Made by a program: the position numbers and the translations under genes. This document shows, piece after piece, positions 3,684 to 46,080 of a DNA stretch of 64,000 nt (within the stretch, counting starts at the first letter, position 1; every line of letters starts with the position of its first letter). The notes under the pieces are model-generated. The model had not been told where the DNA came from and did not search any database. It worked only from the letters and a program-made list of their open reading frames with translations. Source of the DNA: an uncultured Peptoniphilaceae bacterium (GTDB lineage: Bacteria > Bacillota > Clostridia > Tissierellales > Peptoniphilaceae); contig CAYSPO010000001.1 of assembly GCA_964432945.1 (NCBI GenBank), positions 21,506-85,505 on the forward strand, in the 5' to 3' direction.

Positions 3684-4426
3684 TGAATAAACTTTATATT
3701 ATAGGTATAGGACCAGGTGGAGCTGGCTCTATGACTTTAGATGCTATTGATAAGATTAAAGAATCGGATGCTATTGTTGCTTATGGCCCATATTTAGATT
3801 ATATAAAAGAAGCTATTGATATTGAAGGAAAAGAAACTTTTACTTCAGGAATGACTAAAGAAATAGAAAGATGTCAAAAGGCAATAGATTTAGCTTTAGA
3901 AGGAAAAACAACTTCTATTCTTTCTACAGGAGATGCTGGTCAATATGGAATGGCAGGTCCCATTTATGAGCTTTTAATTGAACAAGGAAAGATTAATAAA
4001 GTGTGTGTAGAGGTTATTCCTGGTGTTGGAGCTATATATGCAGCAGCTGCAGAAGTTGGAGCTCCGATAATGATGGACCTTGCTTTAATTAGTCTTTCTG
4101 ATTTATTAGTTCCTTGGGAAACAATTGAAAAAAGATTAGATAAGGCAGCAGATGCTGATTTTGTTATAGGAATATACAACCCTAGATCTAAAACTAGAGT
4201 TAAGCATTTACCGAGAGCTTTAGAGATAATAGGGAAATATAGAGATAAGGAAACTCCTGTAGCTTTAGTAAGAAATGCAGGAAGAGATGATACTTATATT
4301 GAATTAAGTAATTTAAATGATTTTGACTATGAAAAAGCTGATATGAAATCCTTGGTTATAGTGGGTAACTCTACAAGTATGATAAAAGAGGGACTGATGA
4401 TTACCAAAAGGGGATACAATATTTGA
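3683..4426 (+). CDS. cbiH: cobalt-precorrin-3B C17-methyltransferase CbiH
   Basis: Has YIIGIGPGG, STGDAGQYGMAG and PGVGAIYAAAA motifs. ATG overlaps the cbiG stop. Confidence 0.9.
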   Translation: MNKLYIIGIGPGGAGSMTLDAIDKIKESDAIVAYGPYLDYIKEAIDIEGKETFTSGMTKEIERCQKAIDLALEGKTTSILSTGDAGQYGMAGPIYELLIEQGKINKVCVEVIPGVGAIYAAAAEVGAPIMMDLALISLSDLLVPWETIEKRLDKAADADFVIGIYNPRSKTRVKHLPRALEIIGKYRDKETPVALVRNAGRDDTYIELSNLNDFDYEKADMKSLVIVGNSTSMIKEGLMITKRGYNI

Positions 4427-5154
4427 TTTGGTTAATTGGCGGGACTAGTGAAGCTAAACAATTTGTGGATAAGTTTCCTATGTCAGAAAAATTAATAGTA
4501 AGTGTTACTACAAACTATGGAGCGTCTTTAATTAAAGACTGTAAAGTAAAAATATCTGCTATGGATTACGAAGAAATGAAAGAATTTGTAGAGGAAAATA
4601 ACATCAGTGGAATCATAGATATGTCCCATCCATTTGCAGAAATAGTAACAAGTAATGCTCAAAAAATATCTAAGGACATGAAAATTAAATACCTTAGATA
4701 CATAAGACCTATTACCTCTAAGGCTGATTATAGTTTTAAAGAAATGAAAGAATTTGAAAAGTTTTCTAAAGAGAATAAAGGTACATATTTCATTACCGTT
4801 GGAAGTAAAATGATTGGGGAACTTGAAAGTATAAAAAACAAGAATAGATTTATTTATAGGATTCTTCCAATGACTAAAAGTATAGAAATTTGTAGAAAAT
4901 ATAATATTAAATTAGAGGATATTGTTTGTATGAAAGGACCTTTTTCTTTAGATATGAATATAGCTTTTCTAAAAGAATTTTCTGCTGATTATATGCTTAT
5001 GAAAGATAGTGGAGAAGCTGGAGGAATGGAAGCTAAGTTAGGAGCTTGTGAAAAATTAGGAATAAATTCTTTAGCTTTTACCAGAAAATCAGAAGAAGGA
5101 ATACAAGATATAGATGAACTTATATACAAAGCTATTGTTCTATTAGGAGAATAG
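4423..5154 (+). CDS. cbiJ: cobalt-precorrin-6A reductase CbiJ
   Basis: TTG start overlaps the cbiH stop (TTGA). Has N-terminal LIGGTSEA and MKDSGEAGG motifs of the CobK/CbiJ family. Confidence 0.8.
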   Translation: MIWLIGGTSEAKQFVDKFPMSEKLIVSVTTNYGASLIKDCKVKISAMDYEEMKEFVEENNISGIIDMSHPFAEIVTSNAQKISKDMKIKYLRYIRPITSKADYSFKEMKEFEKFSKENKGTYFITVGSKMIGELESIKNKNRFIYRILPMTKSIEICRKYNIKLEDIVCMKGPFSLDMNIAFLKEFSADYMLMKDSGEAGGMEAKLGACEKLGINSLAFTRKSEEGIQDIDELIYKAIVLLGE

Positions 5155-5158
5155 GAAA

Positions 5159-5836
5159 ATGTATATTCCAATAATGTTAAAAGTAAAAAATAAAAAAGTT
5201 AAAGTTTTTGGGGGAGGGCCTGTTGCTTATAGAAAATCTAAGAAATTTTTAGATGAAGGAGCAGAAGTAACAGTTATAAGCCCTGATTTTATAAAAAAAT
5301 TTGAAGATATAAAAGATTTTTGTATAAAAAGACCTTACAAGAAAAGTGATTTACTAGATATAGATATAGTTATAGCTGCCACTAATGATAGAAATATAAA
5401 CTTAGAAATTTCATCTTACTGCGAGGATAAAGGTATTCTTGTTAATGTTGCAGACTCTAAAGAAGAGTCCAGCTTCATACTACCTTCAAAAATAGATACA
5501 GGTGGTTTAGTAATTTCTTTTTCTACATTAGGAAAATATCCAGCATTATCTAGGTCTTTAAGAATGGAATTAGAAGATAAGTTTTCAATTTATGATAAAG
5601 AATATTTAGATTTATTAGAATTATATAGGCAAAAAATATTAAAAGAAAACCCTGAAAATAAGCTGGAGCTTCTTAGACAGGCACTAACTTATAGTAAGGG
5701 GGAAATTGAAAATTTGCTATATTTAATATTTTATAATATAGATGGGAATGAGGTTAGAATCCTCAGCAGCCCCGCTACTGTATTACTGAGCAAACCTAGA
5801 TATGCCACTGAAAGGGAAGGCCTAGGTAAGCTTTGA
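5159..5836 (+). CDS. precorrin-2 dehydrogenase / sirohydrochlorin ferrochelatase (SirC / CysG N-terminal type)
   Basis: Rossmann motif VFGGGPVAYRKSKKFLDEGAEVTVISP and AATNDRNIN resemble the siroheme-synthase N-terminal domain. The last ~30 codons read into the riboswitch aptamer. Confidence 0.7.
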   Translation: MYIPIMLKVKNKKVKVFGGGPVAYRKSKKFLDEGAEVTVISPDFIKKFEDIKDFCIKRPYKKSDLLDIDIVIAATNDRNINLEISSYCEDKGILVNVADSKEESSFILPSKIDTGGLVISFSTLGKYPALSRSLRMELEDKFSIYDKEYLDLLELYRQKILKENPENKLELLRQALTYSKGEIENLLYLIFYNIDGNEVRILSSPATVLLSKPRYATEREGLGKL

Positions 5837-5870
5837 CGTTAAGCCAGGACACCAGAATTCTTCGGAGGGA
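5735..5870 (+). promoter_or_regulatory. cobalamin (B12) riboswitch upstream of cbiMNQO
   Basis: Conserved blocks are present: GGGAAUGAGGUUAGAAUCCUC, GCCCCGCUACUGUA, GCCACUG, GGGAAGGC, and the B12 box AAGCCAGGACACC. The downstream CUUCUCCU (5882..5889) could pair with the cbiM RBS AGGAGGG (5901..5907). Confidence 0.85.
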
Positions 5871-5911
5871 AGTATATTTACTTCTCCTAGCAAAAATAAT
5901 AGGAGGGAAAA

Positions 5912-6637
5912 ATGAAGAAAAAAGCTAAAAAATTATTAAAAGTTTATGTGTTATTAGCTGTCATTTTATTGCCAACAATGGCAGGAGCTATGCACATAAT
6001 GGAAGGATATCTACCAAAGGTACATTCATTAATTTGGTCATTGATTTCACTTCCATTTGTAATCTACGGTGCAAAGAGTGCATCAAAAGTAACAAAGGAG
6101 TACCCTGATAAAAAGCTATTACTAGCAATGGCAGGTGCTTTTACATTTTTATTATCATCATTAAAAATACCATCAGTAACAGGATCTTGTTCTCATCCAA
6201 CTGGTATAGGTTTTGGAGCAATTATATTTGGGCCAGGACCGATGTTTATAATTGGAGTTATTGTTTTATTATTCCAAGCTTTGTTATTAGCTCATGGAGG
6301 AATTACAACTCTTGGAGCAAATACTTTTTCAATGGCTATTGTTGGTTCTCTAGTTTCTTATGGACTATTTAAGTCACTGAAAAAAACAGGAATAAATGAA
6401 TATGTAAATGTATTTATTGCTGTAACTCTAGGAAATCTTGCAACTTATGCAACAACTGCTCTGCAATTAGCAATAGCTTTTCCAGCAGGAAATTTTGCAG
6501 GTGAATTAGTTAAGTACCTTTCAATATTTGCTCTAACCCAAGTTCCTATTGCAATAGTAGAAGGTTTATTATCTACTTTAATTTATGAAAGAGTTAAGAA
6601 ATATGACGGTGGAGGTTTATTATATGAAAACATCTAG
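5912..6637 (+). CDS. cbiM: cobalt ECF transporter substrate-capture component CbiM
   Basis: After the signal-like N-terminus there is an MHIMEGYLP motif. Polytopic membrane protein, followed by cbiN/Q/O. Confidence 0.9.
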   Translation: MKKKAKKLLKVYVLLAVILLPTMAGAMHIMEGYLPKVHSLIWSLISLPFVIYGAKSASKVTKEYPDKKLLLAMAGAFTFLLSSLKIPSVTGSCSHPTGIGFGAIIFGPGPMFIIGVIVLLFQALLLAHGGITTLGANTFSMAIVGSLVSYGLFKSLKKTGINEYVNVFIAVTLGNLATYATTALQLAIAFPAGNFAGELVKYLSIFALTQVPIAIVEGLLSTLIYERVKKYDGGGLLYENI

Positions 6638-6908
6638 TAAGGTAATAATTATAATTTTAATCCTAGCAATTATAATTGCTCCGCTTTATCTGCTTCCAGA
6701 TGCAGATTTCGAAGGAGCAGATGATGAAGGTATGGACACTCTTGCTGAAAATAACCCAGAATATGAAGCATGGGCAGAACCATTTATTGAACCAGCTAGT
6801 GGGGAAATAGAATCACTTTTATTTGCCAGCCAAGCAGCTCTAGGAGCATCTGTAATTGGATATTATTTTGGAGTAAGTAAAGGTAAAAGAAATGTTGAAG
6901 ATAGATAA
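6624..6908 (+). CDS. cbiN: cobalt transport protein CbiN
   Basis: Small two-TM protein. I prefer ATG 6624, preceded by GGAGG, over the track start 6585. Confidence 0.8.
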   Translation: MKTSSKVIIIILILAIIIAPLYLLPDADFEGADDEGMDTLAENNPEYEAWAEPFIEPASGEIESLLFASQAALGASVIGYYFGVSKGKRNVEDR

Positions 6909-7569
6909 ACTTGCCTATGAGAATAATTTATTTAAAATTAGGCCAAGTTTAAAAGTGGGCATGAGTATGTTATTACTCATGCTCTCTATTATTATAGACA
7001 ATAATTTTATTAAGTTTAATATAGTATTATTAAATATTTTAGTTTGTATAGTTTTTGCTAAAATTCCTTTTTTAGAATATTTGAAGTTATATAGAATACC
7101 TTTAGTTTTTCTTATATTAGGTCTGGTTAGTATGATTTTATCAATAAGTAAAGACAACAGGGACTATATATTTTCCTTTAATGTTTTTAATTTTTATCTT
7201 GGAGTCTCTGAGAATTCTCTGATTAATGGATTTAACACTTTTATTAGGTCTATTTCAGCATTAAGTTCTACCTATTCTTTGATATTAACTACTCCAATTA
7301 ACCAGCTTATTAATTTTCTGAAATCCATAAAATTTCCTATTATAATTACTGAACAGCTACTGCTTATATACAGATTTATAAATGTATTTTTAGAAGAACT
7401 AGAAAAAATGAAAATAGCAATGGAGTTAAAGCAAGGATATGGTAAAAAGAAAAATTGGATAAAAAGTCTTTCTCTTATAGGAAGTTCATTGTTTATAAAA
7501 ATAATGAATTCTTTTAAGGATTATTCTTTAACACTTGAACTTAAACACTTTAATGGAGACTTTTATTAG
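6892..7569 (+). CDS. cbiQ: cobalt ECF transporter T component CbiQ
   Basis: Polytopic membrane protein of about 225 aa between cbiN and the ECF ATPase. Overlaps the cbiN end. Confidence 0.8.
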   Translation: MLKIDKLAYENNLFKIRPSLKVGMSMLLLMLSIIIDNNFIKFNIVLLNILVCIVFAKIPFLEYLKLYRIPLVFLILGLVSMILSISKDNRDYIFSFNVFNFYLGVSENSLINGFNTFIRSISALSSTYSLILTTPINQLINFLKSIKFPIIITEQLLLIYRFINVFLEELEKMKIAMELKQGYGKKKNWIKSLSLIGSSLFIKIMNSFKDYSLTLELKHFNGDFY

Positions 7570-7577
7570 GTGATTTT

Positions 7578-8393
7578 ATGATAGAGATTAAAAACTTGTG
7601 CTTTAAATATGACAATGGATATGAAGCTTTAAAAAATATTAATATGGAAATTAAAGAAGGACAAATTATCGGACTTATTGGAGAGAACGGATCTGGTAAA
7701 TCAACTCTTTTCCTTTCTATCCTAGGAATTAACAAAAAATCTCAAGGTGATATTTTATTCAGAGGTGAAAGTATCTCTTACAAGAAAACTTTTATGAGAG
7801 ATTATAGAAAAAAAGTAAATATGGTATTGCAAGATCCAGACAAACAAATATTTTATTCTGATGTCTATTCAGATATAGCCTTTGGACTTAAAAATTTAGG
7901 ATTAAGCGATAATGAGATTAAAAAAAGAGTAAATTCATCTTTGGAAGATTTAGAAATAAGTAATTTGAAAGATAAGGCTGTTCATTACTTAAGCTATGGC
8001 CAAAAGAAACGGCTTACGATTGCAGGGGTATTAGCTATGAATCCAGAGCTTATTCTATTAGATGAGCCTACAGCAGGCCTAGACCCTAGGCTTACCAAAC
8101 AGATGGTTAAAACCATTAAAAAATTAAAAGATAATAGTAAAACTATTTTAGTTTCATCTCATGATATGGATTTTATTTATGAAGTTTGTGACTATATATA
8201 TGTTATCAATAAAGGACAAATTATTAGTAATGGAAAGCCAGAAGAAGTTTTTATAGATGAAGAAAAAATTATATCTGCAGGTTTAAGTTTACCAATGTTA
8301 GTTAAACTCCATGTTAATACAAATTTACCTCTTTTTAAAGATGAAGATAGACTTTATAAATATATAAATAAATATAAAAATAATAATCAGTAA
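7578..8393 (+). CDS. cbiO: cobalt ECF transporter ATPase CbiO
   Basis: Walker A GENGSGKST, signature LSYGQKKR, Walker B LILLDEPTAGLD. Confidence 0.85.
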   Translation: MIEIKNLCFKYDNGYEALKNINMEIKEGQIIGLIGENGSGKSTLFLSILGINKKSQGDILFRGESISYKKTFMRDYRKKVNMVLQDPDKQIFYSDVYSDIAFGLKNLGLSDNEIKKRVNSSLEDLEISNLKDKAVHYLSYGQKKRLTIAGVLAMNPELILLDEPTAGLDPRLTKQMVKTIKKLKDNSKTILVSSHDMDFIYEVCDYIYVINKGQIISNGKPEEVFIDEEKIISAGLSLPMLVKLHVNTNLPLFKDEDRLYKYINKYKNNNQ

Positions 8394-9889: not shown

Positions 9890-10005
9890 TAAGTAAATCT
9901 GAATATTAAATAAAATTATAATTTTTTATAATATTTTGCTTATAAAAAGAAGAATTTTTGAGCTTTTGACTTTCAAATAAGAAATAAAATCTCAGAGATA
10001 TTTAT

Positions 10006-10034
10006 TTGATTAATTATAAATTAGTATATATAAT
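10006..10034 (+). promoter_or_regulatory. candidate sigma-A promoter for the first Cys-Sec-COOH gene
   Basis: TTGATT, 17 nt, TATAAT, about 38 nt upstream of ATG 10073. AT-rich context makes chance matches common. Confidence 0.4.
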
Positions 10035-10072
10035 CAATTGAAAATAAATAATCTTAAAAAAAGGTGTGAAAT

Positions 10073-10576
10073 ATGGATCTTAAAAAGCTAAAAATTAAAA
10101 ATATATTACTAGTTATATTTGCTATAGGAGTGTTATATATAGGATTTACCAGCTTTAATACTGGAACAGAAGATGACGTAGTGGATATAGGTGTATCTGA
10201 AGATAATGAATTATTGAAGTATTTTAGAAAAAGCTATCCTGATTATGAGGTTCTCAAAGCTGGTGAAGAAGATGTAGATGCAAATGGATTTAATGATCTA
10301 GTTGTTATTTATAATATTTCAAGAGATAAGCTAGGTTACCCTACAAAAAACGAAATGTTAGTTATATTAAATAATAATGGTGTTTATGAAATGACTCAAT
10401 CTACAAGAGCACCTATTGAAAAACATGTAATACAGTTTCAAAACATTGAAAATGATGATAGGTATGAAATAACAGTCTCTGGTTCAAAAAGAGGGCAATA
10501 TGGTTTTGGTATATATGAAATAAAAGACAATGCTCTTGTGAATATATATGGTGAAGGAATGGAAAAATGCTGATAG
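10073..10576 (+). CDS. membrane-anchored protein ending in Cys-Sec-COOH (TGA 10571..10573 read as selenocysteine, real stop TAG 10574..10576)
   Basis: Has an N-terminal TM helix. It is a paralogue of 15355..15897, and both end ...GEGM(E/D)xC with the identical hexamer context TGC-TGA-TAG. A hairpin follows in the 3' UTR. This may correspond to the family I recall being named 'Cys-Cys-COOH (seleno)protein SaoC'; I cannot verify that here. Confidence 0.7.
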
Positions 10577-10585
10577 AAAATATGT

Positions 10586-10602
10586 ATGCTTAGGATAAGC
10601 AT
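10586..10602 (+). promoter_or_regulatory. candidate SECIS hairpin (3' of TGA 10571)
   Basis: ATGCTTA-GGA-TAAGCAT, starting 15 nt after the TGA. The apical loop contains GG. Confidence 0.5.
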
Positions 10603-10650
10603 GAATAAGAAAACTTTATATAAGAATAAAAAATTAAAATGATACAATCG

Positions 10651-10681
10651 TTGGGTTAAAGTCGACTTTAATGTTTATACT
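10651..10681 (+). promoter_or_regulatory. MerR-type promoter/operator P1
   Basis: TTGGGT (-35), a 19-nt spacer, then TATACT (-10). The perfect 16-bp palindrome TTAAAGTCGACTTTAA (10656..10671) lies inside the spacer. Confidence 0.6.
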
Positions 10682-10696
10682 TAGAAGGAGGTGAAT

Positions 10697-11248
10697 ATGA
10701 TGAAAATCAAAGATGTAAGTGAATTGACAGGTTTAGCTGGATCCACTATAAGATATTATGATAGCTTAGGACTATTAGGTCCTATAGATAGATTATCAAA
10801 TAATTATAGAAAATTCAATAAACATGATGTAGATATACTTAATTTTATCTCTGAGTCTAGAGATCTTGGTTTTTCTCTTGCCGAAGTTAAAGAAATTTTG
10901 CAAATGAAAAATAGCGGTAAAGAGCCATGTGCGTATGTTGAGAATAAGATTAAGGAAAAAATTACCTTAATAGATGAACATATAAAAGATTTGGAAAAGA
11001 AAAGAGTTGAACTTAACAAGCACTTAGAAATTGGACATTCTGTTTGTGGTTGTCATGGTAATGTTTGTCATTATATTGAAGGCTTAGTTGGAGTAGAAGA
11101 GGAGGATTCATCGACTTGTTCCTGTGGGTGTGAAGAAGAAATAGAGAAATCATCAGGATGTTCTTGTGGATGTGAAGAAGAAACTGAGTTAGACAATTCT
11201 TGTTCATCAAAGAATTCTTCTAAAAACAAGGGTTGTAGCTGCTGTTAG
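10697..11248 (+). CDS. MerR-family metal-responsive transcriptional regulator with a Cys-rich C-terminal tail
   Basis: HTH MKIKDVSELTGLAGSTIRYYDSLGLL. Cys residues in EPCAY and VCGCHGNVCH sit at positions comparable to the three metal-ligand cysteines of MerR. The tail has SCGCEEE repeats and ends GCSCC. Start is ATG 10697 or 10700, after AAGGAGG. Confidence 0.85.
   Translation: MMKIKDVSELTGLAGSTIRYYDSLGLLGPIDRLSNNYRKFNKHDVDILNFISESRDLGFSLAEVKEILQMKNSGKEPCAYVENKIKEKITLIDEHIKDLEKKRVELNKHLEIGHSVCGCHGNVCHYIEGLVGVEEEDSSTCSCGCEEEIEKSSGCSCGCEEETELDNSCSSKNSSKNKGCSCC
11117..11188 (+). repeat. tandem 42-nt-period coding repeat (CSCGCEEExE twice) in the regulator tail
   Basis: TGTTCCTGTGGGTGTGAAGAAGAAATAGAG (11117..11146) and TGTTCTTGTGGATGTGAAGAAGAAACTGAG (11159..11188). 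Confidence 0.8.
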
Positions 11249-11279
11249 GCTGAATTACTTATCTTACCTATAGAAAGTT

Positions 11280-12080
11280 GTGATTATGGGAAAAATAAAG
11301 ATAGAGAATTTCAGAAATTTTATCAATTTATTTTTAATAGCTATAATTATTGGACTATCTATAATAATTTTTAAAAATAATAATCCAAAAATAAAAGAAA
11401 ATAATAATAAGCCTGTAATCAGAATTGGTGCAGGTGATGATATATCAGGAATTGTTCTTGACTATATGCAGTCAGAAACTAATGAATTTAAGTTAGAACC
11501 TTATTTTATCAAAGATTGCTGAGCGACTACTTCTCAATGGGCATTGAGTAGTAATGCGTATTCTATGGCAATTGTTTGTAAAGATGCTGCAAAAAAGTAT
11601 ATAGACACAAGTCCTGATTTTGAAATTATAGGACCTGTAATTATGAATTCAGACATAGTTTTAGAGTCGACTAGAGATATTACAAGTGTAGGTATTACAA
11701 GTAAGAAAAGTTATCACAGAGATTTTGTTCGTGAATTATATGGTGAAGATGTTGAAATTATTGAGCTTATGCCTCAAAGTTTGCCATATGTTTATGAAAC
11801 AGCAAGAGTCGATGCAATAATAACTGATATAACAAAATTTACGAGTAACATAAAAGGAGAAGTGAAAAGTCCTAGTCAGGAAGATTATGTAACAAATATT
11901 TTAATAGCAAGAAGTGATTTTATTGGAACTAAAGAATATAAAGATTTTGTTAATAAATATAATGAAATCGTAAATGAACTAAATTCTGAAGGTCTTCCTA
12001 TTGATTATATAGAGAAAAAAACAAATTTAGATGAAGGGAGTTATGAGTATTGGAAAGTAAAGCTACTAACAATAAAGTAG
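11280..12080 (+). CDS. membrane-anchored ABC substrate-binding-like selenoprotein (Cys-Sec at TGC-TGA 11517..11522)
   Basis: Track ORFs 11280..11522 and 11544..12080 are in the same frame, separated only by the TGA and 7 sense codons. Joined length is about 266 aa with an N-terminal TM anchor. It lies directly upstream of the cognate permease and ATPase. A hairpin follows the TGA. Confidence 0.65.
11528..11553 (+). promoter_or_regulatory. candidate SECIS hairpin (3' of TGA 11520)
   Basis: TACT/AGTA plus CTCAAT/ATTGAG stems with one T-T mismatch. Apical loop is GGGC. Confidence 0.5.
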
Positions 12081-12847
12081 TCTCATTTTTTCAAGATGAG
12101 ACTACCAAACATACATTAGCAAGATTACTTACATATGGAACACTCATTTTAGTTTGGCATCTTTTAGCCACTTATATCGATATACCACTTGTTTTGCCCG
12201 CTCCATTAGATACATTAAGGGCTTTTATAGACAGTATCATCGATATTAAAGTTATGAGCAATGTTGGTATAACTTTAATGAGAGTTCTAAAGGGATGGGG
12301 ATTAGCCTTAGTCTTTGGAATACCTATCGGTATTGCAATGGGATTATCTCCTATTTTTGACAGTGTTTTTGGAGGTATAGTTAACTCTTTAAGACAAGTG
12401 CCAATGATGGCTTGGGTACCTCTTTCAATTATTTGGTTTGGAATTGGTGATGGTCCAACGTTATTTATGATTGCACTAAATGGAGTTTTCCAAATCATTA
12501 TGAATACATCTTCAGGTGTGGCTAATATTTCTGAAGATTATTATAATGCAGCCAAAAGCATGGGTGCTAGTAAACTAAGTATCTTTAAGAACATTATTAT
12601 CCCAGCAGCTCTACCAGATATGTTAACTGGAGCAAGATTAGCCATTGGAGCTGGCTGGATGTCTGTTATCTGAGCGGAGTTCATTGCGACAAGTGCCGGG
12701 CTCGGCTACGAAATGATAGAAGCACAATCTATGATGCAAACTAATAAACTTATAGCGTTAATGTTTTTAGCAGCATTTATAGGGTTTTTAATTGACAATG
12801 TAATACAATTTCTAAATAAGAAATTAACAAAATGGAGATATGTATAG
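12050..12847 (+). CDS. ABC transporter permease (NitT/TauT-SsuC type) with in-frame TGA 12671..12673 read as selenocysteine
   Basis: TTG start 9 nt after GAAGGGAG. After the TGA, 57 further sense codons (AEFIATSAGLGYEMIEAQ...LMFLAAFIGFLIDNVIQ...) run to TAG 12845..12847. They align residue-for-residue with the C-terminus of the paralogue at 30608..31453 (VAAEMLPGSMSGLGYLIAHA...IICIGLIGALFDAIYS). The next gene starts at 12848. Confidence 0.75.
12693..12709 (+). promoter_or_regulatory. candidate SECIS hairpin (3' of TGA 12671)
   Basis: A locally GC-rich hairpin, GTGCCG-GGCT-CGGC(T)AC, in an otherwise AT-rich gene. The loop contains GG. Confidence 0.45.
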
Positions 12848-13633
12848 ATGAAATTAGTTGTTGATAATTTATGTAAATCTTATTCGAATTCAGGAGAAGA
12901 TAATCATGTTTTAGAAAATATTAGCTTTTCAGTTGAAGAAGGAGAGGTTGTAACCCTTTTAGGTCCATCAGGATGTGGAAAGACAACAACTTTAACTATT
13001 ATAGCAGGTTTCAATGATTATGATTCAGGTCAAGTTTTATTAAATGGAGAATTAACAGACAAACCAGGTCCTAATAAGGGTTTTATGTTTCAAAACTATG
13101 CATTATTTCCTTGGATGACGGTAGAAGAAAATATTCGCTTTCCAATGAAGCAATTAAAATATGATAAAGAAAAAATCGATAAAAGAACTAAGTATTTATT
13201 AGATCTGGCTAGGTTGACTAAATACAAGGATTATTACCCTCATCAAATATCTGGGGGTATGAAACAAAGAAATTCTTTGGTGAGAGCATTAGCTCTTGAG
13301 CCAGAAATTTTATTGATGGATGAACCTCTTGGGGCTTTAGATATTGAAATGAGACAAAGTCTTCAAGATCAATTATTAGAAATATTTGATGATCTAAAAT
13401 TAACAGTAATAATAGTAACCCATGATGTGGAAGAAGCAATTTACTTGAGCGATAGAGTAATACTTATGTCCACAAATAAGGGTGAGATTATTTTGAACGA
13501 AAAAATAACTATGCCTCACCCAAGAAAAAGAAAAGATCCTCAATACCAACAATATGTAGATTTGTTATCAGAAAAGTTTATAGAAGCAAGTAAAAAAGGA
13601 GCACAAGCTCAAGGAAGTAGTGAAGATGAATAG
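12848..13633 (+). CDS. ABC transporter ATP-binding protein (NitT/TauT family)
   Basis: Walker A GPSGCGKTT, signature ISGGMKQR, Walker B LLMDEPLGALD. Confidence 0.9.
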   Translation: MKLVVDNLCKSYSNSGEDNHVLENISFSVEEGEVVTLLGPSGCGKTTTLTIIAGFNDYDSGQVLLNGELTDKPGPNKGFMFQNYALFPWMTVEENIRFPMKQLKYDKEKIDKRTKYLLDLARLTKYKDYYPHQISGGMKQRNSLVRALALEPEILLMDEPLGALDIEMRQSLQDQLLEIFDDLKLTVIIVTHDVEEAIYLSDRVILMSTNKGEIILNEKITMPHPRKRKDPQYQQYVDLLSEKFIEASKKGAQAQGSSEDE

Positions 13634-14270
13634 TAAAATAGATATTTCAGAAGTTCTTACACATGAAGATAATTTAACTTCAGATGAAAAGTTTTATAGA
13701 TTAAAAATTGTAGAAAAACTGGCAACAGAAGATAGACCTATTAGATTAAATGAGCTTCCAGAAATAAGCTCTCAAATGTATGAAATTCTCCACGACAAAG
13801 GAGCTATTGTATTAGATGAAAATAAAGAAAATATAATGTATGCTTACCCTGTTTCAGGGCCGCATACAAACCATGAAATTCATTTGGCAGATGGCAGGGT
13901 CTTTCATTCTATGTGTGCTATAGACTCTCTTGGCTCTACTTTTACCTTTGGACAAGATTTAACTATAAAATCTCAGTGTTCTACCAGTGGAAAAGAAGTT
14001 ATTGTAGAAATAGAGAATGGAAAAATTAAATCTACAAATGCTGATGATATTTATGCTATTCATGTTGATTTAAATGCATTTGAAGAATGGTCAGCTAGCT
14101 GCTGAAATGTTATGAATTTTTTCCGTGGGAAAGAAAACATGATTGAATATTACGAAGGAAATGAACTTGACGAAAAGACTAGCTTTGGTCTTGATTTAGA
14201 TACAGCATTTAAAGTAGGAAAAAAAGTTTTTAGTGTTGAACATACCTTATATGAATTTGTAGTTAAGTAA
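13620..14270 (+). CDS. organomercurial-lyase (MerB) family selenoprotein (Cys-Sec at TGC-TGA 14100..14105)
   Basis: FHSMCAIDSL matches MerB YAWCALDTL (Cys96/Asp99). SASC-U-NVMNFF matches MerB SFCCHVHFF (Cys159/Cys160). Reading through the TGA adds 54 codons to TAA 14268..14270, giving 216 aa, which is MerB-like length. Start is GTG 13620 or ATG 13626. Confidence 0.75.
14112..14140 (+). promoter_or_regulatory. candidate SECIS hairpin (3' of TGA 14103)
   Basis: ATG..TTTTTTCC-GTG-GGAAAGAA..CAT imperfect hairpin with a G-rich apex. Confidence 0.4.
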
Positions 14271-14281
14271 GGAGGGATTGG

Positions 14282-15352
14282 ATGTTTTTGTCATATATTA
14301 AAGAAATTTTACTCGCTTCATTAGATTTACTTAACGGTACATCCGCTTGGCTTATTGCAAGTTACCTTTTAGCAGGACTTACAAGAGATATAATTTCACC
14401 AGCTAGGCTGCAAAAGTCTTTAGGGAATACAAAAATATCCTCTATTATAAAATCTACATTACTAAGTATGTGTTTACCTGTATGTAGCTGTGGATCAGTT
14501 CCCTTAGGTATAAGTATGTATGAATCAGGGGCTTATGTCGGGCCAACCTTAGCATTTTTTGCAGGCTCTCCTATCTTAAATCCAGCTTCAATTATTTTGA
14601 GCTTTGGTTTGTTAGGTAAAGAAATCACTCTTATAAATATTGGAGCAGGTTTAATTTTACCTATTATAATCGGAGTTTTGGGAAATAAATTAGCTGGCGA
14701 TGAGCTTATGGATACCAAAATTCAAAAAGAGATAGAAAATATTAAAATTGAAAAAGATGAAAGATCTATTTTCTCAAAAATGAAATCAGGACTTAAATGG
14801 GTAAATAGTGAATTTGCTGTTAATTCTAGCAAATATATAGTTTTTGGTATGCTTTTTGGAGGGTTTTTATTAGTATCTTTTCCTCAAGCATTTATTCAAA
14901 AATATCTCGGTGATCCGGGAGTTATGACACTTTGGAATGTTGCACTTCTGGCTACTCTTATGTATGTATGTGCAGTAGGGCATATTCCTTTTATTGCAGC
15001 TTTGATAGCTAGTGGGGCATCCCCTGGAGCAGCTATAACATTTTTAATGGCAGGAGCAGCAACAAATATTCCAGAAATTATAAGTATAGGATCAATGATT
15101 GGTAAAAAAACAGCAGCCATCTATACTATTGTAATTAGTTCATTTTCTATGCTTGTAGGTATGATTACAAACAAGTTATTAATGCCTGGGTTTCAAAGGC
15201 AAATTGAATATGATGAAGTTGATAAAGCTATAAATACTGCTAATAGTCTTTTATTAAGTTTTCCTGATTGGGTTAAAAACTTATGTACTGCTATTGTAAT
15301 AATTTATTTTCTAAAGGCAATGTATAATTCTTTAATTAGAGATAGGATTTAA
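14282..15352 (+). CDS. polytopic permease, DUF318/ArsP-like family, CxC motif
   Basis: About 10 TM segments in a two-repeat architecture. Motif LPVCSCGSVPLG. Paralogue of 18162..19256 and more distantly of 46081..47121 (FCSCSSIP). Good RBS AGGAGGG. Confidence 0.8.
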   Translation: MFLSYIKEILLASLDLLNGTSAWLIASYLLAGLTRDIISPARLQKSLGNTKISSIIKSTLLSMCLPVCSCGSVPLGISMYESGAYVGPTLAFFAGSPILNPASIILSFGLLGKEITLINIGAGLILPIIIGVLGNKLAGDELMDTKIQKEIENIKIEKDERSIFSKMKSGLKWVNSEFAVNSSKYIVFGMLFGGFLLVSFPQAFIQKYLGDPGVMTLWNVALLATLMYVCAVGHIPFIAALIASGASPGAAITFLMAGAATNIPEIISIGSMIGKKTAAIYTIVISSFSMLVGMITNKLLMPGFQRQIEYDEVDKAINTANSLLLSFPDWVKNLCTAIVIIYFLKAMYNSLIRDRI

Positions 15353-15354
15353 CT

Positions 15355-15897
15355 ATGATTAATCTAGATAGGGAAAAGAGAATTATAAATATTTATTATA
15401 AGGAAAAGCTAGTTTTAACAATAGACGCAAGCTTAATGACTAAATTTTTTCTTACAGTAATAGTTATTCTAGTTGGTTATATAGGCTATATTCAAAACGC
15501 TAGTTTTAAAGAAGCAGATTTTGGAGTTGAAAAAGATAATCCACTTTTACTTTATTTTGAAGAAGAATTTCCTAATAATCCTGTTATCAAATGTAAATTA
15601 GGTGATGTAAATAACGATGGTAGAGATGATTTAATAGTTATTTACCAAATGCAGTTTCAAGATGGTAATGAATTGCGAGTGGTCTTTGATACAGATAATG
15701 GATATGAAGTTTCTAATCAAAATAGAGCTCCTTATGAAAACCAAACTATTGAATTAATTGATATAGATAATTCTCCTCCTATGGAATTTATTGCATCTGG
15801 CTCTAAAAGAGGAAGATATGGCTATGAGATTTATAGGGTTGATAATTCTACTCAGTTAGCCAGCGTCTTTGGAGAGGGAATGGATGTGTGCTGATAG
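15355..15897 (+). CDS. membrane-anchored protein ending in Cys-Sec-COOH (TGA 15892..15894 read as Sec, stop TAG 15895..15897)
   Basis: Paralogue of 10073..10576. They share blocks DVNNDGRDDLIVIY / DANGFNDLVVIY, SGSKRG(R/Q)YG and GEGM. Same TGC-TGA-TAG ending, with a downstream hairpin. Confidence 0.7.
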
Positions 15898-15906
15898 GTT
15901 TATAAA

Positions 15907-15922
15907 AAGTTCAGGTGAGCTT
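15907..15922 (+). promoter_or_regulatory. candidate SECIS hairpin (3' of TGA 15892)
   Basis: AAGTTC-AGGT-GAGCTT hairpin 13 nt after the TGA. The loop contains GGU. Confidence 0.45.
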
Positions 15923-15970
15923 ATATATAAGAAAATCTTATCCATTATAAATTAGCATAAGTAAATATTA

Positions 15971-16003
15971 TTAGACTATAAAGACGACTTTATAGTTTAT
16001 AAT
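15971..16003 (+). promoter_or_regulatory. second MerR-type operator/promoter P2
   Basis: ACTATAAAGACGACTTTATAGT (15975..15996) has core TAAAGACGACTTTA, matching 13 of 14 positions of the P1 core TAAAGTCGACTTTA. Its centre lies at the same distance from a -10 hexamer (TATAAT 15998..16003) as in P1. It could also fold as an RNA hairpin. Confidence 0.55.
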
Positions 16004-16075
16004 AATATTATGATATTGAGTATATATATATTCAACAAATAATGTTATACATAGGTAAAACTTTTAGGAGGAAAT

Positions 16076-17329
16076 ATGAAAAAGAAAGTATTAGCAAGCA
16101 TATTAGCTTGTACTCTTATTCTTTCATCTTTTACTGCTTGTAAAAACTCTGGAACATCATCTGTAGAAAAAATCGAATATGATCCTGTAGCAGAGCTTGA
16201 AAATTTCGAATTAAGAGAAATACCAGAAGCAGATAAAGATTTCAAAATTGAGATGGGCTATAATAACTGTGACCATATGGTTGGAGCTATTATAGGGGAA
16301 GAAGCAGGAATTTATGACGCTTTAGACTTAAATGTAAATGTAACTCAAACTAACAATACAAACATAGCTCAAGCCATGTCAACTAATGAAATGCAAGTTG
16401 GTTATATGGGAATTGACGGAGCAATAAGATCTCACAATGAAGGAGCACCTCTATTTATGAGTGCTGCAAATCATATTGGTGGATCAAGATACTTAGTAGC
16501 TTCTAATGATATTAAAAAGCCAGAAGATTTAATTGGTAAAACATTAGGAATTTCTCAAGATACAGCGAATAACCCAGAATGGTTACAATGGGCAAAAGAA
16601 TTAGGAATTCCAGCAGAAGCTGAAAACTATGAAATAGTAGAAATAGCACAAAAAGATGGACCTTTAGCTTTAAAAGCAGGACAAATAGATGCATTCGCTT
16701 GCTGTGATCCGTTTGCTTCACAATCAGAGCTTATGGAAGTTGGCCACATTATGGCAATAGGTTGGGGAACTGATGTAGAACAAGCTGAAAGTAATGATGC
16801 ATGGGGCATGTGCTGTATACATGCTATGAACCAAAACTTTGAAAAAGAACATCCAGAACTAGCTCAAAGACTTATGGTAGCTCATATATTAGCAGTTCAA
16901 TACTTATATGAACATCCATACAATGCGGCTATGATGTTTGCTGAAGGGTTTGGGACAACACCAGAAGTTGGTTTATTAACAGTATATATGAAGACTGTTG
17001 CTGAAGGTAGAACAATAACTTGGGAATTTGATGAAGAAAACCTTAAAAACTTCGTAAAAGAGTATGAAGATTGGAATGTTGATCCAGAGAAAATTCCTGA
17101 TTTAAGTAAAATAGAATCATTTATGGGTAAAAATATGCTTGAAGAAAGCAATATTATGCACTTTGAGGATTACCTAGAAGAATCAAATTTAGATGAAGTA
17201 TTCCCACTTGGAATGCCATTTGAAGATTGGTTAGCGAAAGCTAAAGCAATAGATGGTATTGATAATGAAATGGGTAATGATATTAAAGTTCCAGAAATTT
17301 ACCAAGAACAAGGATACTCAGCTAACTAA
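16076..17329 (+). CDS. ABC substrate-binding lipoprotein (NMT1/SsuA-like, NitT/TauT family)
   Basis: Signal peptide plus lipobox SSFTAC. About 417 aa and SsuA/NMT1-like (...GQIDAFACCDPFASQ...). Strong RBS AGGAGG. Confidence 0.75.
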   Translation: MKKKVLASILACTLILSSFTACKNSGTSSVEKIEYDPVAELENFELREIPEADKDFKIEMGYNNCDHMVGAIIGEEAGIYDALDLNVNVTQTNNTNIAQAMSTNEMQVGYMGIDGAIRSHNEGAPLFMSAANHIGGSRYLVASNDIKKPEDLIGKTLGISQDTANNPEWLQWAKELGIPAEAENYEIVEIAQKDGPLALKAGQIDAFACCDPFASQSELMEVGHIMAIGWGTDVEQAESNDAWGMCCIHAMNQNFEKEHPELAQRLMVAHILAVQYLYEHPYNAAMMFAEGFGTTPEVGLLTVYMKTVAEGRTITWEFDEENLKNFVKEYEDWNVDPEKIPDLSKIESFMGKNMLEESNIMHFEDYLEESNLDEVFPLGMPFEDWLAKAKAIDGIDNEMGNDIKVPEIYQEQGYSAN

Positions 17330-17340
17330 AAAATTAAAAT

Positions 17341-17369
17341 AATAGGATCATTTATGATCCTATTATTTT
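17341..17369 (+). terminator. rho-independent terminator
   Basis: AATAGGATCA-TTTA-TGATCCTATT followed by ATTTTG. Confidence 0.6.
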
Positions 17370-17466
17370 GTTATTATCAATTAGTATAAGAAATTTTTAT
17401 GATAAAGAATGATTATGCTTAATGAAATTAAACTATGCTAAAATATAGTAAGTAAGAGGAGTGTGT

Positions 17467-17730
17467 ATGAGAGATAAGGTTTTAGTGGAATTTATCAACA
17501 CTTGACCTAGTTGTGATTCACTTGGCAGGTCGGTTCAAGAAGTAGCATCACAATTTGGAGATAAGGTCGAGGTAAAGCTTTATTTCGCAGGAAAAGATGT
17601 TGAATATATTGCCAAATATGGAATGATATATTCAGGGACGATGATAATTAATGAAACTAAAAAAGTACAAAGACTTAGCAGATCTAATATTGAAAAAGAA
17701 ATTAGGGCTGCAGTAGAAGAAATTCAGTAA
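17467..17730 (+). CDS. small thioredoxin-fold selenoprotein with UxxC motif (TGA 17503..17505); not in the ORF track
   Basis: ATG 17467 follows AGAGGAG. Translation is MRDKVLVEFINT-U-PSCDSLGRSVQEVASQFGDKVEVKLYF...GTMIINE...EEIQ, 87 aa, stop TAA 17728..17730. It aligns with the CxxC protein at 45731..46069 (ILGSGCAKCKQLE...). A long hairpin follows the TGA. Confidence 0.7.
17511..17553 (+). promoter_or_regulatory. candidate SECIS hairpin (3' of TGA 17503)
   Basis: Outer stem TTGTGAT/ATCACAA and inner stem CTTG/CAAG. The apical region is GCAGGUCGGUU, which contains GGUC. Confidence 0.5.
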
Positions 17731-17747
17731 AATATTGGAGGTATTTA

Positions 17748-18080
17748 ATGAGAGTTGCTTACGTAATGGGTTCAGAAAATGCTAGAAAGACAGTTAGAGA
17801 TATGATAGTTCCACAAATGGAAGCAAGGGAACATGTTGCAGAAGTTGTAGCAATGTTTTTTACATATGACACAACTTTTATGCTGTTAAAAGATACTGAT
17901 CTTGGAAATAGACTTCAAAAGTTAGCTGATGAAAAAGGCTTGATGATAGTTGCTTGTGACCAATGTGTTATTGAAAGGGAAATTGATGATAAGCTTATTC
18001 CTGCAGCAAGTTTAGGATGCTTTCCAATGGTTTATGGAGCATTAAATAGTGCAGATATAGACCAAGTTATATCCATCTAA
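17748..18080 (+). CDS. DsrE/DsrF-like sulfur(selenium)-relay family protein
   Basis: 110 aa with a DsrE-like pattern (MRVAYVM..., IVACDQCV active-site-like Cys). RBS GGAGG. Confidence 0.6.
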   Translation: MRVAYVMGSENARKTVRDMIVPQMEAREHVAEVVAMFFTYDTTFMLLKDTDLGNRLQKLADEKGLMIVACDQCVIEREIDDKLIPAASLGCFPMVYGALNSADIDQVISI

Positions 18081-18098
18081 TCGGATTAATGTACTTGA

Positions 18099-18140
18099 AA
18101 TAAGCATCAATCTTAAATTAGATTGATGCTTATTATTTTT
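18099..18140 (+). terminator. rho-independent terminator
   Basis: 15-bp stem AATAAGCATCAATCT / AGATTGATGCTTATT followed by ATTTTT. Confidence 0.7.
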
Positions 18141-18161
18141 GCGAAATATGAGAGGTGAGAA

Positions 18162-19256
18162 GTGAATTTTATTAGAGAAGTAATTTTAACAGCATTAGAA
18201 CTATTAAACGGAACATCAACATGGATAGTAGTAAGTTACATAATAGCTGGACTACTTCATGATGTTATATCACCAGTAAGGTTTCAAAAAGGCTTAGGTA
18301 ATACTAAATTTTCTTCTATTGTAAAGGCAACCTTATCTGCTATGATTATTCCTATATGTAGCTGTGGATCTGTTCCTTTAGGAATCAGCTTATATTATTC
18401 GGGAGCTTATCTAGGGCCAACCCTAGCATTCTTAGCATCGAGCCCATTTTTAAATCCAGCAGCAATTATTATGAGTCTAGGACTTTTAGGTTGGGAGATA
18501 ACTTTAATTAATATAATAGCAGGGCTTTTCCTTCCTCTTTTAATAGGGGTAATTGGAAATAAAATAGGTGGAGATGAATTAAGAAAGCCTATGCTAGAAG
18601 AAGAAATAGTTAATATTTCTTTAGAAGAATCAGACGATAGAAGTCTTGTTGAAAAATTTAAATCAGGATTAATTTGGGTTTCTAATGATCTTGCATTAAC
18701 TTTAAGTAAATATACAGTCTTGGGAATGCTTTTAGGAGGATTGATATTATCTATTTTTCCAGAAAGCTTTATTCAAGAATATTTAGGTAATCCTTCATTA
18801 TTATCCTTGATGAATGTAGCAGTAATGGGAACGATAATGTATGTTTGTGCAGTAGGACATATTCCATTTATTGCAGCTTTAATAGTAAGCGGAGCATCTC
18901 CAGGCTCAGCTATTACTTTTTTAATGGCAGGAGCAGCAACAAATGTTCCAGAATTATATAGTATATATAAAATGATAGGAAAGAAAACAGCAGCTATATA
19001 TGGATTTATTGTAACAATTTATGCTTTTATTATCGGATATATCACAAACTTAATTTTAATGCCAGGATTTAAGCCAGTAGCTGATTTTTCTCAAGCAAAT
19101 AAATCGATTGAAATTGCAAACAGATTTCAATTTACAATTCCAGATCCAATTAACTGGATTTGTACAGTAATATTATTAATATTTTTTATAAAAAGTATTC
19201 GTCCATTTTTAGAAGATTTTGCTTACAAAATAAAAGGATTTTTTATAGAAGATTAA
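18162..19256 (+). CDS. polytopic permease, DUF318/ArsP-like family, CxC motif (paralogue 2)
   Basis: GTG start after GAGAGGTGAG. Motif IPICSCGSVPLG. Collinear and highly similar to 14282..15352. Confidence 0.8.
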   Translation: MNFIREVILTALELLNGTSTWIVVSYIIAGLLHDVISPVRFQKGLGNTKFSSIVKATLSAMIIPICSCGSVPLGISLYYSGAYLGPTLAFLASSPFLNPAAIIMSLGLLGWEITLINIIAGLFLPLLIGVIGNKIGGDELRKPMLEEEIVNISLEESDDRSLVEKFKSGLIWVSNDLALTLSKYTVLGMLLGGLILSIFPESFIQEYLGNPSLLSLMNVAVMGTIMYVCAVGHIPFIAALIVSGASPGSAITFLMAGAATNVPELYSIYKMIGKKTAAIYGFIVTIYAFIIGYITNLILMPGFKPVADFSQANKSIEIANRFQFTIPDPINWICTVILLIFFIKSIRPFLEDFAYKIKGFFIED

Positions 19257-30401: not shown

Positions 30402-30538
30402 TTAGCAAGTTATATAATAATAAATTTTTAAATTTCTTATTATATTTTTAGCTTATAGAAATAAGTTCATATTAAAAATAATAGGTATTTATTATAAGAA
30501 AATATGGTTTTGGTAAGGGTATAGAATAATATGTTAGG

Positions 30539-30570
30539 GATAAAGGCTTTCAAAATTGAAAGCCTTTATC
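30539..30570 (+). other. perfect 13-bp-stem hairpin between the binding-protein and permease genes
   Basis: GATAAAGGCTTTC-AAAATT-GAAAGCCTTTATC with no clear U tract. It could be an attenuator or mRNA-stabilising element. Confidence 0.4.
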
Positions 30571-30607
30571 TATTGAATAAGATAAGGTAGGGGTTGAAGA
30601 AATATAT

Positions 30608-31453
30608 ATGGAAAAAAACAAAAAAAATATTTCATCTTTTATTGTTCCAATGATAGCTCCAATATTATTTATAATATTGTGGGAGTTCCTTGCAATTAAA
30701 GTAGATAATAATGCAGTTCTTCCTAGAGTAACAAGAGTTGCCCAGCATTTTATTAATATAAATGAAGATATAATAGGAATAGGAACAATATCAAAAAACA
30801 TCTTATATAGCTTAATAAGAGTTTTTATTGGATATATTTTAGCAATAATTATTGGTCTACCTCTTGGATTATTAATGGGATACTCAAAGGGAGCTAAAGA
30901 ATCTTTAAACTTATTTATAAGTATTTTTCAGCCAGTTCCTGCAATTGCTTGGAGACCTCTAGTTTTAGGGTGGTTTGGAGTAAGTTCACTTGCTACAATT
31001 TTAAAACTCGATTATGGACAAACTTATGCAATTATGGATAATTTTAAAATGTCTATGATATTTTTGATTTTTTTAGGGGCGTTTTTTCCAATATGGGGAA
31101 ATACTATGTTTGGAGTAAGTAGTGTAAGAGATGTTTTAGTAGAAAGTGCTCAAGTATTAGGAGCAACAGAAAAAGATATTTTTCTTCATGTTCTATTACC
31201 TGGGGCAGGTCCAAATGTAGTTAATGGATTAAAGTCTGGTTTAACTGCAGCATGGAGCTGTTTGGTGGCAGCAGAGATGCTTCCTGGAAGTATGAGTGGA
31301 TTAGGGTATCTTATAGCCCATGCTTATGAGCTGGCCAGAATGGATTTGGTAATCGTAGGGATAATATGTATAGGATTGATTGGTGCATTATTTGATGCAA
31401 TATATAGTATGATATTTAATAAATATTTTGCTTGGCAAAGGCTTGTAAGGTAG
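30608..31453 (+). CDS. ABC transporter permease (NitT/TauT-SsuC type)
   Basis: Six TM segments with an EAA-like region. All-Cys/Ala paralogue of 12050..12847. Confidence 0.85.
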   Translation: MEKNKKNISSFIVPMIAPILFIILWEFLAIKVDNNAVLPRVTRVAQHFININEDIIGIGTISKNILYSLIRVFIGYILAIIIGLPLGLLMGYSKGAKESLNLFISIFQPVPAIAWRPLVLGWFGVSSLATILKLDYGQTYAIMDNFKMSMIFLIFLGAFFPIWGNTMFGVSSVRDVLVESAQVLGATEKDIFLHVLLPGAGPNVVNGLKSGLTAAWSCLVAAEMLPGSMSGLGYLIAHAYELARMDLVIVGIICIGLIGALFDAIYSMIFNKYFAWQRLVR

Positions 31454-31458
31454 ATAAT

Positions 31459-46069: not shown

Positions 46070-46080
46070 ATTATTCTCCT

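Follow-up and report, generated by a model that had tools for sequence, protein, structure and literature searches.

The window analysed here is a stretch of 64,000 nt with 30% GC from an uncultured Peptoniphilaceae bacterium (GCA_964432945.1, contig CAYSPO010000001.1, positions 21,506 to 85,505, forward strand). It contains saoP, a candidate selenoprotein gene for the permease of an ATP-binding cassette (ABC) importer (12050..12847, + strand), which lies in a locus belonging to the selenocysteine-assisted organometallic (SAO) system. The gene starts with TTG, with GGGAG 9 nt upstream, and comprises 265 codons up to a TAG stop, among them an in-frame TGA (12671..12673, +) that is predicted to be read as selenocysteine (Sec) at residue 208, within the motif W-M-S-V-I-U-A-E-F-I-A-T-S. 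As reported in a preliminary description of this DNA, the TGA closes an open reading frame (ORF) of 207 aa (12050..12673), the frame stays open for 57 more codons (AEFIATSAGLGYEMIEAQ...KWRYV, the translation after the TGA also being written AEFIATSAGLGYEMIEAQSMMQTNK...TKWRYV), and the TAG at 12845-12847 directly abuts the ATG of the ATPase gene saoA at 12848. The same description had read the UGA as Sec and had considered read-through necessary for a complete permease, which is supported by the pairing of Sec with Cys among homologues, by coding-type conservation downstream of the TGA, and by a conserved hairpin resembling a Sec insertion sequence (SECIS). TGA 12671-12673 almost certainly encodes selenocysteine in the membrane subunit of an ABC importer.

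Using full-length SaoP with U written as C as the query, the protein search returned 696 homologues at E <= 1e-20, and the residue at the TGA column was counted in the best 120 of them. Cys occupied the column in 60, the protein ended exactly one residue before it in 53, and Trp was written in 7; two of these seven were checked at the DNA level, and the codon was TGA called under genetic code 4. With the last two groups counted as TGA, the best 120 divide into 60 Cys and 60 TGA forms. The genome scan, with one genome per species, yielded 80 saoP loci from Peptostreptococcales/Tissierellales, Clostridium, Desulfotomaculia, Fusobacteriaceae, Coriobacteriaceae, and Desulfobacterota (summed up as Bacillota, Fusobacteriota, Desulfobacterota, and Actinomycetota), with the motif readable in 78. 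The preliminary description had proposed inspecting this column in orthologues for Cys, Ala, or Sec; the aligned codon was TGA in 73 of the 78 genomes and TGY in five (TGT in 2, TGC in 3), with no TAA or TAG. Since the codon is the same TGA in 73 of 78 related genomes, its occurrence is more than chance, and since the sense-codon homologues carry Cys only, never a TGG Trp codon or a Gly codon, the column bears the classic signature of Sec. The SaoP of the window is 46-71% identical to the full-length homologues and 49-70% to the genome loci, with 53-54% identity to SaoP of Clostridioides difficile; none of the species representatives found exceeds 65%.

The frame remains open for 57-59 codons past the TGA in all 75 TGA-bearing loci. 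Counted against the saoP of the window, the differences at codon positions 1/2/3 amounted to 1121/484/2027 in the first 50 codons after the TGA and to 1032/529/2189 in the 50 codons before it. This coding-type substitution pattern indicates that translation continues past the TGA without a change of frame, which excludes a pseudogene and also a second polypeptide initiated at ATG 12713, as the most conserved peptide of the family precedes that ATG. The Cys-type homologues, 245-283 aa in length, are each one uninterrupted protein. Public metagenome gene calls of this organism and its relatives (L081-L085) either split saoP and saoL or switch to genetic code 4. The split calls give saoP as 207 + 44 aa (seen for L083, Logan SRR8925796) and saoL as 159 + 52 aa, and the code 4 calls write Trp at the Sec position and run genes beyond true TGA stops. 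Both kinds of call are a systematic artefact in protein databases. The sequence itself is also present in Logan SRR8925796 (on a contig of 37.6 kb), SRR9699875, and ENA ERZ4218736.

The SAO families were assigned by comparing bit scores of NCBIfam hidden Markov models with the curated cutoffs. The read-through protein matched NF040733 'ABC_perm_U' (SaoP) with 375.9 bits against a cutoff of 295, residues 17-264 aligning to profile positions 3-250 of 251, and TauC (143.7 bits), SsuC (128 bits), and NtrB trailed far below their own cutoffs. A paralogue in the window (30608..31453) reached 137.9 bits on the SaoP model vs the cutoff of 295. PF00528 (BPD_transp_1) was found on saoP homologues, and at transmembrane helix 5 (TM5) the window motif SVI-U-AEFIATS matches the V-I-[U/C]-A-E-F-I-A-T-S of the family.

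The preliminary description had not been aware of a Sec residue described in the membrane domain of an ABC transporter. This premise does not hold, since SaoP, curated as NF040733 in NCBIfam, had been described as a permease with Sec at a substrate-gating position by Haft & Gwadz ('Eight Unexpected Selenoprotein Families...', 2022; bioRxiv 10.1101/2022.07.06.499078). In their work, UGA read-through lengthened the SaoP of C. difficile from 209 to 268 aa, its Sec210 was matched to Met163, the gating residue in MetI, an AlphaFold homodimer brought both Sec side chains together, and a few members were of the Cys type (10.1101/2022.07.06.499078). The SAO locus was defined by nine families, including SaoB (CU), SaoL (CU), SaoT (UXXC/CXUC), and a rare SaoC ending in UGA-UAG; it co-occurs with SelD and the Stickland selenoproteins, and its proteins are now annotated by the Prokaryotic Genome Annotation Pipeline (PGAP; 10.1101/2022.07.06.499078). 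SaoP is also named in a 2026 review of prokaryotic selenoproteomes (PMC13188914). The feature in the window is real and its earlier interpretation is right, and the family is already described and curated: the finding is a rediscovery.

The position of the Sec residue was examined with P0005, the closest Cys-type homologue (71% identical), whose Cys187 corresponds to U208 of the window protein. In the AlphaFold2 model of P0005 (26-sequence alignment; mean predicted local distance difference test score of 91.4), the long helix 154-192 behind the EAA loop is TM5, and this Cys is placed in it five residues before the helix ends. The Foldseek TM-score of the model was 0.85-0.89 to CmpB and NrtB and 0.66 to MetI, and the profile matches were NrtB (8w9m_B) at E = 1e-41, CmpB at 1e-38, and MetI at 4e-5. 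Judged by the same model, the 207-aa form would lose the whole last transmembrane helix, as had been anticipated, together with the outer end of TM5 and the short helix after it. The profile alignment with NrtB recovers the published numbering, with Arg127, Pro131, Leu132, and Arg208 in place, and it pairs SaoP Met120 with Leu132, Met204 with Leu216, Ser205 with Ala217, and Sec208 with Ala220. This Ala220 belongs to the V-A-A-E of NrtB; BLASTP against the paralogue 30608..31453 put the TGA at the first Ala of L-V-A-A-E, the alignment that had been given before. In NrtBCD, the cavity in the outer leaflet lies on the twofold axis and is built from TM3 and TM5 of both protomers; Leu132/Leu132' together with Leu216/Leu216' have been proposed as gatekeepers, and Ala217 lines the nitrate cavity (PMC10945777). 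From the NrtB alignment and the monomer model, Sec208 is predicted to lie one helical turn outward of the gatekeeper Leu216 position, on the same face of TM5, and this location beside the gate residues agrees with the earlier suggestion that the U lines or gates the translocation path.

Downstream of the TGA, a SECIS-like hairpin was located at 12693..12709 (+; GUGCCG[GGCU]CGG(C)UAC, -6.9 kcal/mol in isolation), about 20 nt from the UGA and with its first loop G 26 nt after it. According to the bacterial SECIS model of Zhang and Gladyshev, the apical loop of such elements reportedly contains G and is spaced roughly 16-37 nt from the UGA, a consensus into which the GGCU loop fits by its distance of 26 nt. 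The preliminary description had pointed to this hairpin as GC-rich within an AT-rich gene, and indeed the candidate recoding signal is covered by a GC-rich stretch of rare codons (12671..12709, +) with 61.5% GC, ranking within the uppermost 0.011% of the 39-nt windows. Directly after the TGA, 9/13 codons end in G or C, against a background G/C content at third codon positions of 0.169 (binomial P = 4e-5), and rare codons are among them: GCG, which makes up 2.6% of Ala codons, occurs twice, and CTC (1.9% of Leu) and GCC (7%) are also present.

To compare the hairpin among species, the 54 nt from the TGA of 67 distinct Sec-type saoP sequences were aligned without gaps. Most of them form the typical hairpin GAGUGCCG[GUCU]YGG(Y)UACUC at alignment columns 21-41, and the hairpin of the window fills columns 23-39 in the same register. 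Standard pairs made up 91.8% of the cells in columns 21-28/33-41, compared with at most 51.5% when the partners were slid. In L046 and L048 the peptide is altered (A to Q, Y to F, and S to L) and a 7-bp hairpin is still in the same place; moreover, the wobble bases G21, T24, and C27 are conserved, which is accounted for by the hairpin alone and not by a competing helix. At similar distances, G-containing apical loops (GGA, GGGC, GUG, AGGU) follow four of the five other UGAs of the SAO locus; after the SaoT UGA (17503), folding gave no clear equivalent hairpin. The minimum free energy (MFE) z-scores for the 60 nt after each SAO-locus UGA ranged from -0.02 to -1.8 and were not decisive.

Several results weigh against the hairpin as the recoding signal and against Sec insertion at the saoP UGA. 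The MFE fold of the 60 nt after the TGA was no better than shuffled sequences (z = -0.34), so that the thermodynamic argument alone is weak and conservation and codon bias carry the case. Rfam gave no match to a SECIS family or to tRNA-Sec: searching the whole window at the gathering thresholds returned two cobalamin riboswitches only, and a search of 10000-18500 at E up to 10 returned four chance-level matches only. Little covariation is seen within the hairpin (3 doubly changed cells), compensatory changes being few because the peptide is nearly invariant. The A-G-x-G codons on their own favour a GCC...GGC stem, and high-GC Cys-form saoP genes can form the hairpin too. A second helix (12673-12707, with arms 12673-12679/12701-12707; columns 3-9 with 31-37) joins the UGA-proximal GCGGAG to the hairpin's 3' arm. 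Across the 67 sequences this helix is 95% paired, with 8 doubly changed cells at one pair (GC/AU/GU), and RNAalifold applied to these sequences returned it, as a weak structure (-5.2 kcal/mol, UGA included), and not the hairpin. Since the two are mutually exclusive and equally well conserved, the hairpin is only a candidate SECIS fold. The second helix may be functional, may form an alternative base of the SECIS, or may be a by-product of the invariant peptide; possibly, the two helices act as a switch that tunes Sec insertion. Furthermore, selA, selB, selC, and selD were absent from the annotated ORFs of the 64 kb window, and ARAGORN found no tRNA or selC in it; consequently, the Sec machinery of the host is assumed.

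The partner families SaoA, B, L, E, C, X, T, and D are all encoded between 10073 and 19256, in the order SaoC, B, P, A, L, E, C, X, T, D, E, all on the + strand and with six candidate Sec codons. Copy 1 of saoC (10073..10576; NF040734, 136.7 bits, cutoff 80) ends in Cys-TGA-TAG, with the TGA at 10571-10573 and an 8-bp hairpin with a GGA loop, and copy 2 (15355..15897; NF040734, 145 bits, cutoff 80) ends likewise, with the TGA at 15892-15894 and an AGGU-loop hairpin. Candidate SaoC proteins ending in Cys-Sec-COOH were reported in only 3/52 species, and PGAP cannot annotate this form (10.1101/2022.07.06.499078); in the window, it occurs twice in one locus. The candidate substrate-binding selenoprotein gene saoB (11280..12080; NF040727 'SBP_SaoB_CU', 214 bits, cutoff 140) has its TGA at 11520-11522 in K-D-C-U-A-T-T, followed by a hairpin with a GGGC loop. 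Immediately downstream of saoP, saoA encodes the ATP-binding subunit without Sec (12848..13633; NF040729, 355 bits, marginally under the cutoff of 360), and the two genes adjoin in 79 of the 80 related loci. It is followed by saoL, a candidate selenoprotein gene for a MerB-like lyase (13620..14270; NF040728, 145.8 bits, cutoff 140), with a TGA at 14103-14105 in S-A-S-C-U-N-V and a GUG-loop hairpin (z = -1.75).

Two copies of saoE, for an efflux transporter of the ArsP_1 / SO_0444-like type, are located at 14282..15352 (NF040736, 485 bits, cutoff 325) and 18162..19256 (NF040736, 506 bits). An extra substrate-binding lipoprotein is encoded by saoX (16076..17329; NF040735, 459.8 bits, cutoff 300). 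The gene saoT, for a candidate thioredoxin-like selenoprotein (17467..17730; NF040730, 125.4 bits, cutoff 65), was found by tblastn; it is missing from the ORF lists because its TGA (17503-17505, in N-T-U-P-S-C) splits the gene after 12 codons. The DsrE-related saoD (17748..18080) scored 161.3 bits on NF040732, marginally under the cutoff of 169. Between the first saoC and saoB lies a gene for a MerR/CueR-family regulator (10691..11248), with below-cutoff matches to CueR, CadR, ZntR, and MerR and a Cys-rich C-terminal tail (CGCHGNVCH...CSCGCEEE...CSCGCEEE...CSCC), which could be the metal sensor of the operon. A regulator of the MerR family goes unmentioned in the SAO preprint (10.1101/2022.07.06.499078), and a homologue is found near saoP in 7 of the 80 related loci. 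In the same set of loci, SAO partners flank saoP in 44-79 and double-cubane reductase genes in 29.

If the TGA were a true stop, the locus would encode a truncated permease (a pseudogene) or a 207-aa protein plus a 44-aa piece from ATG 12713. Automated callers give this very split for several assemblies of metagenomes (in L083, 207 aa + 44 aa), and the ORF list of the window holds a 44-aa ORF at 12713..12847. Nevertheless, this explanation is scarcely credible: the 13 codons between the TGA and ATG 12713 (AEFIATSAGLGYE) encode the most conserved peptide of the family, with mainly synonymous changes; the stop is always TGA in the 73 genomes and is replaced by Cys codons only; the Cys-type homologues run through without a break; and the substitution pattern after the TGA matches that before it. 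The preliminary description had named a stop with a separately initiated downstream ORF as the case that would speak against Sec, and the comparative data come close to refuting that true-stop reading instead. Read-through of the UGA with an amino acid other than Sec, by near-cognate Trp or Cys or under a reassigned code (4 or 25), is highly improbable. The Trp at the column in 7 database homologues and the Sec machinery not seen in the window would fit it, but the two examined 'W' entries are TGA codons called under code 4, and on one such contig the other genes end in TAA, and TGA is confined to the Sao Sec sites and to use as a terminal stop. In the window, TGA is the normal stop of at least five other genes (e.g., at 823, 4424, 5834, 20785, 53596), and when it is treated as sense, about 50 long genes have no internal TGA; with all long frames listed, internal or penultimate TGAs were restricted to the SAO gene cluster. 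A global reassignment of TGA was thereby ruled out. The restriction of sense-codon homologues to Cys and the conserved hairpin with a G-containing apical loop at the expected distance also speak against any residue but Sec.

A further explanation, overlapping with the preferred one, takes the Sec codon mainly as a selenium-dependent expression switch: without selenium, translation would stop at 207 aa and the importer would be off, with selenol chemistry being secondary. It agrees with the distribution of the UGA sites, six of which fall, within one locus, in the genes of the import side and of processing, with none in the efflux pump SaoE, whose lack of Sec was also stressed by Haft & Gwadz (10.1101/2022.07.06.499078). 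However, Cys forms exist without such a switch, and the Sec/Cys position is an invariant one on the channel-lining face of TM5; since the site is not arbitrary, the side chain itself probably has a direct role. A role mainly as a switch is judged unlikely.

We consider it very likely that saoP encodes the SaoP of an SAO importer, with the UGA recoded to Sec208, probably via the hairpin 12693-12709, and with Sec208 at the TM5 gate, where it may take part in an organometallic relay. According to the proposed mechanism, 12050-12847 would encode the homodimeric membrane permease of the importer. As in established bacterial Sec decoding, SelB-GTP-Sec-tRNA would bind the hairpin 12693-12709 while the ribosome is at the UGA, and recoding would yield the 265-residue SaoP with Sec208 in VI-U-AEFIATS. 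The full-length homodimer would then join SaoA2. Sec208 would be placed in the outer-leaflet half of TM5, the helix predicted to line the central translocation channel, and since it would lie one turn toward the periplasm from the Leu216 position, the two selenols of the dimer would face each other at the external gate; we infer both this dimer geometry and the gating role. The gate selenols may bind and pass on a soft-metal or organometallic substrate, a putative function that follows the hypothesis of Haft & Gwadz and is consistent with the data presented here. The substrate would be handed to the gate from the Cys-Sec site of SaoB, or from SaoX, and would then pass to SaoL, the cytoplasmic MerB-like Cys-Sec lyase. 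The released metal would be exported by SaoE, with SaoC, SaoT, and SaoD presumably serving as thiol/selenol carriers. By analogy, SAO would thus resemble, as a thiol/selenol relay, the route from MerP to MerT to MerB/MerA. That the substrate of the SaoP Sec pair is a methylated metal(loid) or a corrinoid-linked organometallic, with SAO coupled to corrinoid methyl transfer and not to detoxification of the mercury type, appears quite unlikely.

Genes with cobalt and corrinoid functions lie on both sides of the SAO locus, at 1-8393 and 44515-56924, and include cobalamin biosynthesis genes of the CbiD/T/F/G/H/J types. One cobalamin riboswitch (5695-5874) lies ahead of cbiM/Q/O, encoding a CbiMQO cobalt importer, and a second one (49062-49234) ahead of a cluster of five URO-D/MtaA-like methyltransferases, a B12-binding (corrinoid) protein (50298-50954), a RACo-type activator (51976-53598), and CobW (53595-54491). 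Together with two double-cubane reductases, these genes would make the 64 kb an island of cobalt-carbon chemistry around the SAO locus, the setting considered for the corrinoid reading of the substrate. Such an adjacency was rejected as a general SAO feature, as in 80 other genomes no cobalamin or corrinoid genes were found within 8 kb of saoP.

Double-cubane [8Fe-9S] anaerobic reductases are encoded on the - strand at 26423-27595 and 32316-33485 (NF040772, 490 and 495 bits), in agreement with the co-occurrence of this reductase with SAO that was reported by Haft & Gwadz (10.1101/2022.07.06.499078). Between the two genes lie those for a PatB C-S lyase (27744-28922) and for a second NitT/TauT ABC importer, which has no Sec (29160-32232). 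The ORF at 25437-26093 was considered as a seventh selenoprotein gene, with 224.8 bits on NF045649 'methyltransferase domain-containing selenoprotein MduS' (cutoff 380), and was rejected: its stop is not a TGA, and its match is confined to the N-terminal 214 of the 338 profile positions, making it a short non-Sec relative. Farther downstream, 40240-41979 encodes a secreted protein in which three CWB2 cell-wall-binding repeats are fused to two rhodanese domains, which by its predicted domains is an unusual surface-anchored sulfur/selenium-transferase architecture, and a molybdopterin oxidoreductase gene (42114-44318) follows it.

A Sec residue in the membrane gate of a transporter is unusual and would imply covalent or very high-affinity chemistry between selenium and the substrate during transport. 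The SAO system is present in C. difficile, C. botulinum, and other anaerobes. The SaoP family, its gating position, and the operon were published in 2022-2023 and built into the NCBI annotation pipeline, the study of Haft & Gwadz reportedly appearing later in J Bacteriol in 2023. To this, the window adds a divergent SaoP member, independent comparative support for the Sec call, and a mapping onto the newer cryo-EM structures of NrtB/CmpB, as well as six candidate Sec codons in one locus, an internal MerR-type regulator, and an unusual corrinoid-rich neighbourhood. The practical value lies in correcting the annotation, since gene callers split saoP, saoB, saoL, and saoT and overlook the candidate C-terminal Sec of both saoC genes.

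Among known systems, the closest is the SaoP of C. difficile (WP_003430774.1, Sec210), which has the same VI-U-AEFIATS motif with Sec/Cys alternation and a length of 268 aa, compared with 265 aa in the window. As in the window, published saoP genes have SaoB(CU), SaoA, SaoL(CU), SaoE, SaoC, SaoX, SaoT, and SaoD as neighbours and a double-cubane reductase nearby. The window locus differs from the published ones by its two SaoC and two SaoE copies, both SaoC being of the rare Cys-UGA-UAG type, by its internal MerR-family regulator, and by adjoining cobalamin/corrinoid genes.

The permeases NrtB and CmpB of the cyanobacterial nitrate and bicarbonate importers (PDB 8w9m, 8wm8, 9u9z) have the NitT/TauT-type fold in common with SaoP and share with it the W-x-x-x-x-[A/U]-A-E and a conserved Arg in TM5 and the P-x-x-A-W in TM3. 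NrtB, no selenoprotein itself and found outside an SAO context, carries Ala220 in place of the Sec and holds a small oxyanion in a hydrophobic cavity gated by Leu132/Leu216, whereas in SaoP both gate positions are Met, with the Sec one turn higher. TauC, SsuC, and the window paralogue 30608..31453 (28% identical) belong to the family of SaoP and share the EAA loop and the V-A-A-E region, but they have Ala where SaoP has Sec/Cys, and the paralogue has a 20-residue insertion after TM3. MetI of MetNI (PDB 3DHW, 3TUI) shares the type I importer core fold with SaoP, as reflected in its profile match and TM-score given above; it is a five-helix minimal permease with Met instead of Sec, the residue-level match to the Sec being that of Haft & Gwadz. 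The Mer system (MerP, MerT, MerB, MerA) is an analogue in which, as proposed for SAO, paired soft ligands would occur on a binder outside the cytoplasm, on a transporter in the membrane, and on a cytoplasmic lyase for carbon-metal bonds, the pairs being Cys-Cys in Mer vs Cys-Sec or Sec-Sec in SAO. MerT has no homology to SaoP, and SAO differs from Mer by its ATP-driven ABC importer, by its use of selenium, and by having no MerA, whereas a MerR-type regulator is common to Mer and the SAO locus of the window.

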